From positions 960,001 through 1,024,000 of the forward strand of contig OY969927.1 in the NCBI GenBank assembly GCA_963704655.1: DNA of 64,000 nt. Reading direction: 5' to 3'. Source of the stretch: an uncultured Candidatus Babeliaceae bacterium (GTDB lineage: Bacteria; Babelota; Babeliae; Babelales; Babelaceae). Numbering within the stretch: position 1 is the stretch's first letter; each line of letters starts with the position of its first letter. Positions 10,526-13,076 of this stretch are shown here, in pieces. Under the pieces are notes generated by a model. That model was not told the DNA's origin and ran no database searches. It saw only the letters and a list, made by a program, of their open reading frames with translations. A program made the translations under genes and the position numbers.

Positions 10526-11170
10526 TTAAAGTTTAGATGCTGGTTTAGCTGCAGCTTTTGGAGCTTCAGATGTCATCTTTTTTGCACGTTTTTCTGCTGC
10601 ATGTTTTGCATTAAGTTCAGCTACAACATCAGAAGTCATGTCTACCGCATTTTTTGCATACATTACAATATCTTTGTAAAGAACAAGGTCGTAACCTTTT
10701 TTGTCAGCTACAGCTTTTACAGCAGCATCAATTTTGAGTTTGAATTGATTTTGTAATTCAACAAATTGTGCTTGTGCTTTTTCTGAAAGTTGTTGATTTT
10801 TTGTTTGTAACTCTTGGAACATTGTCTGAATGTTTGCAGTTTCTTCTTTGGTAGGTTGTTTACCTTCTTTTTGTTTCGCTTCTAATTTTTTGTACTCTTC
10901 TTCAACTTTTGATTGCAATGTTTGAAGAGATTTTTGTTCTTTATCTAAGCCATCAGTAAGCGCTTTAAATGACTCTGTCCAACCTTCTGCTTTTGAGTTT
11001 GCTGGATTTTTTGGATCGATAATTTGGGCAATATCAACCGTTGCAAAGGTGCAACCGCAACTTGTTTTAGCTGCTGAAACGTCTGTTTTTACTGCAGGCG
11101 CCATAGCAAAAGCTGTACTAGAAACAAAAACTAACGCTGAAACGAGCAGTGATACACGTAATGTTTTCAT
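10526..11170 (-). CDS. skp: OmpH/Skp family periplasmic chaperone
   Basis: Signal peptide, FATVD, long coiled coil and VADKKGYDLVL...DMTSDVV C-terminus. Confidence 0.85.
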   Translation of the reverse strand: MKTLRVSLLVSALVFVSSTAFAMAPAVKTDVSAAKTSCGCTFATVDIAQIIDPKNPANSKAEGWTESFKALTDGLDKEQKSLQTLQSKVEEEYKKLEAKQKEGKQPTKEETANIQTMFQELQTKNQQLSEKAQAQFVELQNQFKLKIDAAVKAVADKKGYDLVLYKDIVMYAKNAVDMTSDVVAELNAKHAAEKRAKKMTSEAPKAAAKPASKL

Positions 11171-11259
11171 AAAATATCCTTCTATAAAAATGGAACAAAA
11201 ATGTATCATAAAGCTACTGCGGAATAGAGGAAGAGTCAATAGAGACAGAAAAAAAGTGG

Positions 11260-11375
11260 CTCGCCATCGGCAGCCTGCCAAGCCTGAAGGCGTGGATAGG
11301 CGTAAGATGGTGGAGGCGATGGGAATCGAATCCCCTTTCGCGCTAACCGCGCTACAGAGGACAGGCCCATGCCGC
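11260..11375 (-). repeat. Duplicated tmRNA 3' end interrupted in the T-loop by a 35-bp hairpin element, with a second element abutting the CCA
   Basis: 11304-11330 is identical to 11485-11511 (27 bp); homology resumes (cccatg..ccgc) after the insert at 11331-11365. Confidence 0.85.
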
Positions 11376-11488
11376 TTATACTTGTATAAGATGTTTATTT
11401 CTAAATAACAACACTGTTGTCAGATTTTAACCATTTTCTCAAATAAAAAAAATGGCCTGCCATCTGTAGCTCCGAAAGGAGCGCAAGA

Positions 11489-11876
11489 TGGTGGAGGCGA
11501 TGGGAATCGAACCCATGTCCGCAACACATCAGACTCAAAGCGCTACATGTTTAGTTATTGCTTATACCGCTATGACTCTTTCAATAACAAAAAAATGTCA
11601 TAGGGCCTGTTCAGTAATTGTTACGCCACACAACAAAAAAGTCTTGCGTAACATTCTATCTGGATTATACGTGCTTAATCAACTGATAGACACGCCAATT
11701 AAACAAGAGCTCTTAAAAAAAGTTGCTAAGGCTTACGCCATAGCAAGGTTTTGATAAGAATAGCCACTCATATTAGGAGTTGCGTTTATTGTTTGATCAA
11801 TTCTTTAACGAGCACTTAATCAACGCTCGACATGCTCTTTAAGACGTCAACACCACGTCGAAGCCAGTACGCCCCC
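11489..11876 (-). ncRNA. ssrA: tmRNA (one-piece), tag peptide (A)ATPNMSGYSYQNLAMA* encoded at 11783-11733
   Basis: 5' GGGGGCGTACTGGCTTCGAC and 3' GGGTTCGATTCCCATCGCCTCCACCA with a G3-U acceptor pair; resume context ATAAAC-GCA; tag ends in LAMA; lies downstream of smpB. Confidence 0.95.
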
Positions 11877-11924
11877 GAAAATTTCAAATTAGACACCTGT
11901 TATTATTACAGGTAATTAAGAGAG

Positions 11925-12105
11925 CAACACCACAGCCTGCCCGCTGAAGCTTGCCAAGCCGGAAGGCCTGGATAAGCGAAAGCTGGGTCGAAGCCAGTAC
12001 GCCCCCGTATATTTCAAAATTGATTCTCAGAAACCAGCCCTCTGTAGCTTGCCGAGGCTGAAGCCCCGGATAAGCGTAAGATGGGTACGCCCCCGAAAAT
12101 TTCAA
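11925..12105 (-). repeat. Two extra tmRNA 5'-end copies, each interrupted by a ~50-bp hairpin element
   Basis: caacaccac|53 bp|gtcgaagccagtacgccccc (11925-12006) and gaaaccag|~48 bp|tacgcccccgaaaatttcaa (12030-12105) match the intact 5' end at 11848-11887. Confidence 0.85.
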
Positions 12106-12113
12106 TTAATACC

Positions 12114-12142
12114 AGTTTATCACAAGGGGAAAAAATTGGCAA
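12114..12142 (-). promoter_or_regulatory. Sigma70-type promoter for the tmRNA locus
   Basis: TTGCCA-17 bp-TAAACT with an extended -10 TG, immediately after the smpB stop. Confidence 0.6.
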
Positions 12143-12601
12143 TTAGGCATCATATTTGCCCCGTAGCTCACGACGCGTTTCACGGGCAATATCACGCTCT
12201 TTAATCTCTTCTTTACGCTCATGGGCCTTTTTATGCTTACATAAGGCAAGTTCAACCTTAACCCGGCCCTTTTCATTAAAATAGAGCTTAAGGGGAACAA
12301 GGGTAATGCCCTTTTTTGCTACTTCCATCATAATGCGATTAAGCTGTTTACGCGAAACAAGCAATTTCCTACTGCGTTTAACAAGTTCTTCAAGCTTTTG
12401 ATAGGCATGTGAATAGGGTGAAATCTGACAGTTAATTAAAAAAAGCTCGTTGTTATGGATTGAGCCGAATGCCCCCACAAGCTGAGCGTGGCCAGCGCGA
12501 AGTGATTTAACCTCATCACCCTTAAGAACTATACCCGTTTCATAAGTTTCAATAATATCATAATCGTGAAATGCTTTTTTATTTTGAGCTATTATTTTCA
12601 T
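12143..12601 (-). CDS. smpB: SsrA-binding protein
   Basis: NKKAFHDY, ETGIVLKGDEVKSLR, RKLL and LVPLKLYF motifs. Confidence 0.98.
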   Translation of the reverse strand: MKIIAQNKKAFHDYDIIETYETGIVLKGDEVKSLRAGHAQLVGAFGSIHNNELFLINCQISPYSHAYQKLEELVKRSRKLLVSRKQLNRIMMEVAKKGITLVPLKLYFNEKGRVKVELALCKHKKAHERKEEIKERDIARETRRELRGKYDA

Positions 12602-13076
12602 ATTTTTTGGCAAGATGAGTATAAAGATGTTTAAACACAGGGTACAAGGGTACCGTAACTAGTATAGCAAAAATAACGCCGCCTACTATAAAATACCAAA
12701 AGCAGACCTGCTTGATACCCAGATAGGTTAGTAAGGTAGGGGCAATTTTTTGTTCGATCCAATTAAACCAGCTTGGGTTATAAGCGCATAAATCCAAGGG
12801 GATAATATAAGTAAAAAGTACATATCCAGTTAAATAGTTTGCAATAACAATAGGAATTGTGGTAAGAAATGGATTATTGACAAGATAAAGAACTGAAAAA
12901 ACAAGAGGTACAGAAAGACCAAGTGCCCAGGCAAAAAAAATTGCCAGCCAAGTCTGCAAACCCAAAAAGGGCGAAAGCCCAATAAAAATACCCAAACAGG
13001 TAGCATATGCAAGTCTTGATGGATCACGCTCAAGTAAGAAAAATTTATGCGCAAGCGTTTGAAAAAATTTTTTCAT
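12579..13076 (-). CDS. DUF2062 family membrane protein
   Basis: P.RLAYA..LGIFIGLSPFLGLQT and NNPFLT..P pattern. Confidence 0.75.
   Translation of the reverse strand: MKKFFQTLAHKFFLLERDPSRLAYATCLGIFIGLSPFLGLQTWLAIFFAWALGLSVPLVFSVLYLVNNPFLTTIPIVIANYLTGYVLFTYIIPLDLCAYNPSWFNWIEQKIAPTLLTYLGIKQVCFWYFIVGGVIFAILVTVPLYPVFKHLYTHLAKKYENNSSK

Follow-up and report, generated by a model that had tools for sequence, protein, structure and literature searches.

The window analysed here is a stretch of 64,000 nucleotides (nt; G000:C1:960001-1024000) from the genome of an uncultured Candidatus Babeliaceae bacterium, which we take to be of the amoeba-parasite type; the genome, G000, is a single contig of 1.298 Mb with 38% G+C. 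The window holds one complete gene for transfer-messenger RNA (tmRNA), ssrA, at 11489–11876 on the minus strand, flanked by broken copies of its own 5′ and 3′ ends, each interrupted by a small hairpin. ARAGORN and Rfam both identify the intact gene, which scores 155.5 bits against RF00023 (gathering score 47) over model positions 1–374 and thus belongs to the tmRNA family; ARAGORN gives its tag as ATPNMSGYSYQNLAMA*. Read 5′ to 3′ on the minus strand, the order is smpB, promoter-like site, copy A, copy B, filler, leader with ssrA, hairpin E3 with a T8 run, spacer, displaced 3′ copy and hairpin E5 with a T7 run:

12143..12613, minus strand: smpB-like open reading frame (ORF) from the ORF list, directly upstream of the ssrA region
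12114..12142, minus strand: promoter-like site TTGCCA-17-TAAACT with TG before the −10, a 9/12 consensus match, upstream of copy A
12026..12107, minus strand: 5′ copy A, comprising leader (12107-12095), ssrA nt 1-9 (12094-12086), hairpin E1 and degenerate nt 10-21 (12037-12026)
12034..12085, minus strand: hairpin E1, long form of 51-52 nt, an nhmmer family match; −21.9 kcal/mol, z −3.0
11916..12021, minus strand: 5′ copy B, comprising leader (12021-12007), nt 1-20 (12006-11987), hairpin E2 plus CT, and nt 21-38 (11933-11916)
11934..11986, minus strand: hairpin E2, long form, including the CT tail; −22.4 kcal/mol, z −2.5
11891..11915, minus strand: 25-nt filler that separates copy B from the leader of ssrA, a small A+T-rich hairpin; −7.5 kcal/mol, z −3.0
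11489..11890, minus strand: leader AATTTGAAATTTTC (11890-11877) and intact tmRNA gene (11876-11489), from ARAGORN and Rfam
11445..11491, minus strand: hairpin E3, short form, beginning with the CCA of ssrA, plus T8 run; −16.4 kcal/mol, z −3.5
11376..11444, minus strand: 69-nt A+T-rich spacer from E3 to the displaced 3′ copy; relatives hold a nuclease gene at this position
11308..11375, minus strand: displaced 3′ copy, comprising the ten-base 5′ strand of the T-stem (GCGGCATGGG), hairpin E4 and the T-loop-to-CCA sequence (11330-11308)
11331..11365, plus strand: hairpin E4, short form, its family orientation reversed relative to ssrA, between GGG and TTCGA of the T-loop
11249..11310, minus strand: hairpin E5, long form, beginning with the CCA of the displaced copy, plus T7 run; −19.8 kcal/mol, z −2.8

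Copy A reads as leader AATTGAAATTTTC plus GGGGGCGTA, then E1, then CTGGTTTCTGAG; copy B as leader plus GGGGGCGTACTGGCTTCGAC, then E2 (11986-11936) and CT, then GTGGTGTTGCTCTCTTAA; and the 3′ copy as GCGGCATGGG, reversed hairpin E4, then TTCGATTCCCATCGCCTCCACCA. With the hairpins removed, copy A is identical to intact-gene positions −14 to +21 in 32 of 36 aligned columns, copy B matches in 47 of 53 columns (including a 20/20-nt exact match, genome-wide BLAST E = 5e-5) and the 3′ copy in 33 of 34 (23/23-nt exact match, E = 8e-7). The first-pass annotation, made from the DNA letters, had described just this arrangement, with an intact tmRNA at 11876→11489, two extra 5′ ends with leader, one extra 3′ end, and every extra copy split at a different position by a small hairpin, reversed in the T-loop; the homology searches and alignments bear it out, the splitting hairpins being E1, E2 and E4. 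All five hairpins share one fold, a 6-bp outer stem, a 3×3 internal loop and an inner stem (z −2.5 to −3.5). The final four bases of E1, CTGG, can equally be read as ssrA nt 10-13. At the joints of E1 and E2, 0–1 bases are duplicated relative to the intact gene, and it is tens of bases of the gene end that are duplicated instead.

Upstream, the ORF at 12143..12613 is smpB-like, a name that rests on its conserved C terminus and on smpB–ssrA synteny; the same gene order is found in the congeners G001, G003 and G004. Two consensus promoter matches lie in 11150-12250, the second within ssrA, so that the site at 12142-12114 is the sole match outside the gene and stands, as had been claimed, upstream of the most distal broken copy. 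Hexamers resembling TTGCCA/TAAACT are visible by eye at the same place in G003 and G004. The filler at 11891..11915 scored as weakly terminator-like. A leader motif, (C)TTTGAAAT, is conserved across the order and ends 4-5 nt before the mature tmRNA 5′ end (window 11877-11890; loci L001-L026); TTGAAATNNNCGGGGGCG, with at most one mismatch, occurs in 135 of 261 genomes of the order. It is possibly a processing or promoter-proximal signal.

Short-read data and other assemblies both bear on the reality of this structure. Run X1 yields a 246-nt contig (11273-11518) with 0 differences, joining the ssrA 3′ end, E3, the spacer, E4, the 3′ copy and E5, and a 363-nt contig (11571-11933), again with 0 differences, from the ssrA interior to the edge of E2. 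X1 may be the source sample; none of its contigs crosses E1 or E2, at which the repeats disrupt the assembly graph, and the uncovered parts of X1 and X8 are evidence in neither direction. The G004 assembly carries a copy A-type unit at the same site, with nt 10-21 better preserved (CTGGCTTCCGAG), and in the G001 assembly the site of copy B is likewise occupied by a unit of that type, whose CT joint is identical but whose hairpin interior differs. In G001, NN joints coincide exactly with the repeated 5′ ends, and we read them as unmerged contig overlaps. The locus is not an assembly artefact, since its 5′ units recur in G001 and G004, which is the stronger support, and contigs of short reads span the 3′ part. 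Exact 274-nt contigs from the RNA libraries X2 and X3 cover 11542-11815, that is, the ssrA interior only, and are silent on the gene ends and on transcription of the broken copies. The X2 and X3 contigs are identical and come from metatranscriptomes of different studies, of plant and moss samples, so the organism or a near-identical one was present there with abundant tmRNA.

The hairpins belong to a multicopy family with the motif arm6-TTCGC...GCTWC-arm6′-CAGG and a length of 30-52 nt. E1, E2 and E5 served as seed for an nhmmer profile, which settled on 28 long-form copies in G000; of these, 12 stand at the CCA of intact tRNAs, 2 at the CCA of displaced 3′ copies, 4 in 5′ partial copies and 10 elsewhere. 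Compared across all 40 tRNA and tmRNA genes of the genome, the trailers share the design CCA-NNN-TWCGC...GCTWC-N′N′N′-TGG-CNNGCC, with variable interiors. A CCA-paired hairpin with a TGG-CNNGCC tail follows 23 of the 40 tRNA and tmRNA genes, against 462 of 35,346 CCA sites genome-wide (1.3%); 17 of the 40 fail this test, among them the Cys and Leu-tag genes, which by eye hold variant forms. The element that interrupts the ssrA copies is thus the normal 3′ trailer hairpin of most tRNA genes, tied, as described below, to a family of 80-amino-acid (aa) GIY-YIG proteins; the first-pass annotation had missed both points. Pairing next to the CCA is upheld by covariation: in 39 trailers from G000 and 54 loci of relatives, picked by the tail TGGCNNGCC only, the four bases after CCA pair with the four before TGG at a fraction of 0.724 (shuffled 0.474, sd 0.029; maximum 56% in 2000 shuffles), and the covarying pairs include TCT/AGA, GCT/AGC, TCC/GGA, TTC/GAA, TGC/GCA, ATC/GAT and TAC/GTA. 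A regular-expression hairpin scan gave 41 matches against 7.3 in shuffled sequence; it requires arm pairing and was therefore not used as evidence of structure. Several families of the order have a hairpin of this design behind ssrA. A classical miniature inverted-repeat transposable element (MITE) combines terminal inverted repeats with a short target-site duplication of constant length, a pattern that E1 and E2 do not show.

Other small hairpins share the neighbourhood of these trailers. A second family (..CCTGAG..(G)TCGAAGG..) is nested in the loops of the trailer hairpins of tRNA-His, Pro, Asn and Met (907 kb), and the converse nesting, of trailer-type hairpins in the second family, occurs in 3 copies at one fixed site (gaacact/hairpin/cagggtgcacgg). 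Between the smpB stop and the ssrA promoter of G004 (L010, C22) lies an extra 50-nt hairpin repeat of a third type (..ggccgcatggattcgacttcgctcaccacgagcggcc..).

A genome-wide look at tRNA genes, which the first-pass annotation had proposed as a check, revealed the same duplicate-plus-insert pattern: a partial gene end, a hairpin and an intact gene stand together at five tRNA genes of G000 and in four other genera. Four of the G000 cases are 5′ copies, each 40-110 nt upstream of its intact gene, and read as follows:

tRNA-Arg(cct): GCGCCCGTAGCT/hairpin/CAGT
tRNA-His: leader + GTGAATGTAGCT/hairpin/CAG
tRNA-Ala(ggc): GGGGCT/hairpin/GTAtGCTCAGTTG...
tRNA-Arg(tct): GTGCCCA/hairpin/ATAGCTtcCAGCTGGAT

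The joint in the tRNA-Arg(tct) copy is a palindromic snap-back, AGCTGGAT-CA-TCCAGCT. The fifth case, tRNA-Arg(tcg), is of the 3′ type: the gene is followed by 635 nt with two small ORFs, then by TTGCAGG, a reversed hairpin, TTCGAGCC...CCA and another hairpin. The two ORFs (L029, G000:C1:225400-227000; genome 226150-226730) are of ~85 aa with two CxxC pairs and of ~94 aa and hydrophobic, and lie between tRNA-Arg(tcg) and its 3′ copy; from their position, where relatives have the nuclease gene, they may be cargo. In G002, tRNA-Phe and tRNA-Leu(taa) are each followed by a GIY-YIG gene, a reversed hairpin, a T-loop-to-CCA copy and a forward hairpin, which is the 3′ structure of ssrA with the nuclease gene still present. 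Site and orientation of E4 are the same as at G000 tRNA-Arg(tcg) and at these two G002 tRNAs, and additional 3′ copies stand behind GIY-YIG genes at L033, L051 and L059. The 3′ breakpoints fall at GG^TTCGA of the T-loop in 4 cases and the tRNA 5′ breakpoints at TAGCT^CA of the D-stem; breakpoints, in both, are to be kept distinct from cleavage sites. The hairpin thus has preferred sites, namely the position after CCA, GG^TTCGA, and TAGCT^CA of the tRNA D-stem; its known sites at the 5′ end of ssrA are nt 9/10 and 20/21.

Searching 261 genomes of the order for the junction TAGCT/TCCAsC..TwCG gave 23 occurrences in 9 genomes, against 2 for a reversed control. Twelve junction loci, holding 25 occurrences, were inspected; L085 accounts for two of the 23 sites, nine array sites of G180 were read within L099 (L094 and L100-L104 not being read apart), and two junction sites have no locus of their own. 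Of the 12, six hold a true 5′ copy with an intact tRNA downstream; in four the hairpin is nested in a trailer hairpin after GTAGCT, and two are chance matches. The true copies are:

G001 Arg(tcg): two successive broken copies, one with three inserts
G001 Arg(acg) and G004 Arg(acg)
G137 Arg(tct): two hairpins in one copy
G188 Arg(tcg)
G180 Val(cac): nine-unit tandem array

In the G180 array (L099, G180:C19:6955-9970, ~1460-2180), nine units of tRNA-Val(cac) 5′ fragment, hairpin and nt 13-22 repeat with a period of 69-102 nt directly upstream of the intact tRNA-Val. At L085 (G001:C25:1-1765), an old near-full-length tRNA-Arg(tcg) copy with three inserts, one at nt 12/13, one in the anticodon stem and one in the anticodon loop, sits upstream of the second broken copy and the intact gene.

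Each of the eight partial gene-end copies in G000 holds a hairpin. The six at 5′ ends have it forward and the two at 3′ ends have it reversed, so its CAGG tail always faces the intact gene. Hairpin-free partial copies numbered 0 in the whole-genome scan of G000 and 0 among 57 tRNA and tmRNA genes in 54 loci of relatives.

The second component is a small nuclease gene. PF01541 matches ten places in G000, and two intact proteins of 80-83 aa (E 4.4e-18 and 6.4e-11) have the GIY-YIG catalytic domain; the match spans residues 1-72, leaving a protein that is GIY-YIG domain alone. No NCBIfam model matches the 80-aa protein. Homing enzymes of the SegB type carry an added DNA-binding part beside the catalytic domain; no separate DNA-binding domain was found in the 80-83-residue proteins (Pfam match 1-72). 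The two G000 genes lie directly behind the hairpins of tRNA-Arg(cct) and tRNA-Glu, with a fragment 1 kb further on. Near the former (L027, G000:C1:231100-233500), a pair of opposed tRNA-Arg(cct) genes, separated by ~2 kb, brackets the 80-aa GIY-YIG gene (genome 231546-231785) together with a second gene that lies on the opposite strand. The family occurs in 77 of the 121 genomes sampled from the order. Thirty loci hold 31 copies in all, of which 19 lie within 300 nt 3′ of a tRNA or tmRNA gene, for which random placement gives an estimate of ~1%; the other 12 comprise 2 within 300 nt of a 5′ end, 2 at 317 nt and 8 without a tRNA in the locus. In the loci read for their arrangement, gene-CCA is followed by a forward hairpin, a spacer, a reversed hairpin and then the nuclease gene. 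The ~100-aa GIY-YIG genes of G000 (375, 474, 482, 488 and 767 kb) were considered as partners of the hairpin and set aside, being flanked by the other motif (CCTGAG..TCGAAGG) and away from tRNA ends; the third-type motif (..ggccgcatggattcgacttcgctcaccacgagcggcc..) also flanks the gene at 767 kb.

Within the genus, hairpin and nuclease gene come and go together (four genomes with both, two with neither). The 80-aa protein is present in G000, G001, G002 and G004 and was not found in G003 (94% complete) or G005 (88% complete), and a strict hairpin pattern occurs 7, 3, 2 and 2 times in the former against 0 and 0 in the latter. A hairpin follows ssrA in G000, G002 and G004 and is absent there in G003 and G005; in G001 the ssrA CCA is followed by N bases and then by the apparent 3′ half of a hairpin. 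That two genus members lack both hairpin and nuclease argues against an indispensable processing signal. Behind ssrA itself, G004 has a 23-residue GIY-YIG remnant (~155 nt after the gene), G012 and G023 have a full nuclease gene, and G003 has neither gene nor remnant, the presence and absence at one site between close relatives that is expected of a homing endonuclease.

The broken ssrA ends are far more restricted. Leader and 5′ end are repeated close together only in G000, G001 and G004 among the 261 genomes of the order, so that partial ssrA copies occur in 3 of 6 genus genomes and in 0 of the 255 other genomes searched. The genus falls into two groups by ssrA identity: G000, G003 and G004 (91%), and G001 with G002 (93%); between the groups the identity is ~80-83%. 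Copy A is common to G000 and G004, not G003; copy B to G000 and G001, not G002, G003 or G004. The sequence after the copy A hairpin has drifted, reading CTGGTTTCTGAG in G000 and CTGGCTTCCGAG in G004, against CTGGCTTCGACG in the intact gene. Two histories would give this pattern: transfer of units from one lineage to another through recombination in their conserved flanks, or frequent loss through recombination between their direct repeats. Apparent 5′ copies in G197 and G198 were rejected, their close matches being two complete ssrA genes, and G075 and other double matches were single mismatched chance matches or lay on different contigs. In G197 and G198 (L072, G197:C2:3000-8200; L073, G198:C12:3500-8800), which are of one genus, the two complete tmRNA genes are ~3.5 kb apart and their tags differ, ATNVAFA versus a longer tag ending AFA.

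On balance we consider it probable that the ssrA locus carries the scars of successive insertions by a selfish hairpin/GIY-YIG element that targets the ends of stable-RNA genes. The hairpins would be gene-less, MITE-like copies of the hairpin that bounds the 80-residue GIY-YIG cassettes, and cassettes and hairpins alike would home to tRNA and tmRNA gene ends. Directly after the CCA, as with E3 and E5, landing would be harmless. Insertion within the gene would leave the hairpin only in a displaced partial copy, with the intact gene on the side of the CAGG tail; at ssrA there would have been two such events on the 5′ side and at least one on the 3′ side, and the nuclease gene between ssrA and the displaced 3′ copy would since have been lost while relatives kept theirs. 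We suppose, by analogy with phage T4 SegB, that the nuclease cuts the tRNA-like DNA of the gene end, whereupon break repair may capture or copy the hairpin, with or without the nuclease gene, and resynthesise the gene end from the intact copy. The duplication could arise by template switching or one-sided copying, selection keeping those products that retain one whole gene; template switching is suggested because palindromic filler stands at some joints (the tRNA-Arg(tct) snap-back and the 25-nt hairpin at ssrA).

Expression would continue from the old promoter, through ~230 nt of scars and both broken 5′ copies. Such read-through is probable because the sole good promoter match, which G003 and G004 conserve, stands upstream of copy A. 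RNase P would then free the tmRNA, and E3 with its T8 run, to judge from its form the probable intrinsic terminator of ssrA, would end the transcript before the second 3′ copy. E5 is probably an older trailer and terminator.

The interpretation offered in the first-pass annotation is partly supported and holds in outline. Its idea of repeated attack on the gene by a tiny element, rescued by duplication, fits what we find. Its suggestion that insertion is coupled to duplication is favoured because eight of eight partial copies hold a hairpin, which falls short of proof.

Several observations weigh against the element as we picture it. Ten of the 28 long-form copies, and 28 of 56 merged hairpin loci, lie away from RNA genes. 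The ssrA insertion sites, GCGTA^CTGG and TTCGAC^GTGG, do not have the TAGCT^CA motif of the tRNA sites. A nuclease gene between a broken 5′ copy and the intact gene was not seen in the loci examined, and the ssrA locus of G000 has no nuclease gene now, so that the link rests on relatives and co-occurrence; the relatives, moreover, are not independent samples. The 80-aa protein is a putative nuclease that has the catalytic domain only. The patchy distribution of copy B would fit lateral spread and loss by direct-repeat recombination equally well. Finally, the gene piece that follows each 5′ hairpin (nt k+1..m) fits neither a single template switch nor a simple staggered cut; no single-step scheme that we could draw predicts it, and the mechanism of duplication given above is tentative.

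Other routes of mobilisation were tried and rejected. Retro-repair, in which precursor cDNA is patched in, was suggested by duplications that start near predicted transcription starts; no reverse transcriptase was found in G000, and the coincidence of start sites is uninformative because short duplication units make it expected. RAYT/IS200 mobilisation would need a Y1 (HUH) transposase, and PF01797 gave 0 matches in G000, a control search having matched 6 of 14 known genomes.

The main rival holds that the duplication came first, by slippage, and that a hairpin landed later in the spare copy, a landing in the sole working copy being lethal, so that the nuclease played no part in duplication. 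It predicts exactly the gene piece nt k+1..m, and two sites have the form that it requires: copy A and the gene in G004 are a plain ~35-nt tandem duplication (−14..+21) with the hairpin within the first unit, and tRNA-Ala(ggc) is likewise, with a unit of ~40 nt. Once made, such units can amplify, as the nine-unit array of G180 illustrates. Against it, none of the eight G000 partial copies is free of a hairpin, and no hairpin-free partial copy was found at the 57 genes in relatives. Some units, moreover, are not plain tandem ones and include unrelated, often palindromic filler (the 25 nt at copy B, the Arg(tct) snap-back), and two rare events would be needed at each of at least eight sites in a 1.3-Mb genome. 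We regard this history as unlikely, if worth serious attention.

Less likely still is that the hairpins are host-made, vertically inherited trailers for tRNA 3′ processing or termination, with the broken copies as by-products of repeat recombination. Their exact position, the covarying pairing at the CCA, the terminator-like look of E3 and E5 with their T runs, and the same design after ssrA in several families are what such trailers would show. Two of the six genus genomes nevertheless do without them by the strict pattern and have none at ssrA, 17 of the 40 G000 genes fail the trailer test (the Cys and Leu-tag variants seen by eye among them), copies lie within gene fragments, other repeats and intergenic DNA, and presence of the hairpin tracks the nuclease gene. 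Recombination between trailers, besides, cannot place a hairpin at nt 9/10 or 20/21 of a 5′ copy.

It is highly improbable that the 3′ copy is the attR remnant of a decayed integrase-borne island. Islands of this kind are reported at tRNA and tmRNA genes with a direct repeat from T-loop to CCA (Williams 2002, 2003). The likeness is real: the 3′ part of the gene is directly repeated from the T-loop downstream of the intact gene, in what is said to be the classic att layout, and tRNA-Arg(tcg) is separated from its copy by 635 nt with two small ORFs. Here, in contrast, there is no integrase and no island, a family hairpin abuts each copy at the joint, G002 has a GIY-YIG gene in the integrase's place, and 5′ ends are copied too (two for ssrA, four for tRNAs), which an attR leaves unexplained; we know of no integrase that makes 5′-end copies. 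The only two tyrosine recombinases (PF00589) of G000 lie at ~389 and ~530 kb, none being near ssrA or the tRNA sites (serine recombinases were not searched), and no integrase gene occurs in any of the 26 ssrA loci read. The first-pass annotation, which held that this is not the att pattern and pointed to the smpB–ssrA loci of relatives as a check, was right on the former, and the latter turned up the 5′ units at the same sites in G001 and G004.

We give equally little credence to its third suggestion, that the broken copies are functional decoys or allow alternative tRNA-like folds of the transcript. The 20/20 nt kept at the 5′ end in copy B and the 23/23 nt in the 3′ copy could pair with their partner strands in a read-through transcript; such copies are nevertheless confined to 3 of 6 genomes of one genus (0 of 255 others), the sequence on the far side of the hairpins has drifted, recurrence of the layout at five different tRNAs speaks for a process rather than for a function of ssrA, and E3 with T8 should stop most transcripts before the 3′ copy. 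An assembly artefact from collapsed or chimeric strain variants is barely credible. Such repeats do break short-read graphs, G001 has its NN joints in this region, and E1 and E2 are where contigs of X1 end. Against this, the assembly consists of one contig, contigs without mismatch span both the 3′ structure and the copy B/gene junction, two other assemblies show the same units, and similar units stand at tRNA genes in five genera.

A selfish hairpin/GIY-YIG element, which we continue to favour, has partial parallels among known systems. REP/REPIN–RAYT sequences and the Rickettsia palindromic elements are short multicopy palindromes, the latter occurring within genes, including the tmRNA gene. 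Unlike these, the present family stands in a genome in which no Y1 transposase was found, is positioned exactly to the CCA, and always duplicates the invaded gene end rather than being tolerated in the product. In fungal mitochondria, the Allomyces atp6 hybrid gene is said to show an invading GIY-YIG ORF that supplies or regenerates the end of an essential gene, the resident end becoming a displaced pseudo-copy, and small GC-rich double-hairpin elements spread in the same fungal mitochondrial genomes. There the targets are the 3′ ends of protein genes in organelles, whereas here both ends of bacterial stable-RNA genes are affected and a site-specific hairpin sits in the displaced copy.

The nearest described system is that of the Ssn site-specific single-stranded-DNA nucleases with their NTS/SRM hairpin repeats (Chenal et al. 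2025, PMC11893778). There, a small GIY-YIG gene is flanked by a hairpin repeat that also has many gene-less genomic copies, a layout that its authors note to be insertion-sequence-like, and the repeat NTS is CGTCATTCCCGCGMAVGCGGGAATCYRG. Our case is alike in that small GIY-YIG genes are flanked by hairpin repeats whose gene-less copies are scattered genome-wide, and the repeats abound elsewhere in gene-bearing genomes (4/4 in the genus versus 0/2). It differs in that its repeats sit at the CCA ends of tRNA and tmRNA genes and occur within displaced gene ends; by eye, our hairpins share no sequence with the NTS consensus in section 6 of that paper, and the word tRNA has 0 occurrences in its accessible text. 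Phage T4 SegB, according to its abstract, is a free-standing GIY-YIG homing endonuclease in a tRNA gene cluster that recognises a T-psi-C stem-loop motif (PMC2330249); it shares with our case a tRNA target, and the 3′ breakpoints here lie in the T-loop (GG^TTCGA). The differences are the hairpin repeats, gene-less copies and duplicated gene ends, none of which the abstract mentions. In the literature covered, which leaves out most subscription journals, we found no account of CCA-end tRNA hairpin repeats with a GIY-YIG gene, nor of ssrA 5′ duplications. We place the finding among nuclease-associated hairpin repeats, or homing-type selfish DNA.

A bolder version is possible, though we hold it only tentatively and think it more doubtful than not: this would be a new kind of mobile element, one that recognises the folded, cloverleaf-like single-stranded DNA of highly transcribed stable-RNA genes and whose insertion itself regenerates the invaded end. 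Such 'self-healing' would let it colonise single-copy essential genes at both 5′ and 3′ ends and spread between lineages together with the duplicated end.

Few targets in a genome are less tolerant than single-copy tRNA and tmRNA genes, and to our knowledge only integrases that bring a replacement 3′ end have so far been known to use them routinely. Here the agent is far smaller, a 30-52-nt hairpin with or without an 80-residue nuclease gene, and it affects both gene ends and leaves a readable stack of scars; we know of no locus at which they are stacked more densely than at this ssrA. If duplication truly belongs to the chemistry of insertion, selfish DNA would have a new means of persisting within essential genes; if the nuclease is specific for structured single-stranded tRNA-gene DNA, the Ssn class of enzymes, described only recently, would become broader. 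A practical consequence concerns annotation: tRNA 'trailers', partial tRNA and tmRNA matches and broken metagenome-assembled genomes at these genes in Dependentiae would share one cause.

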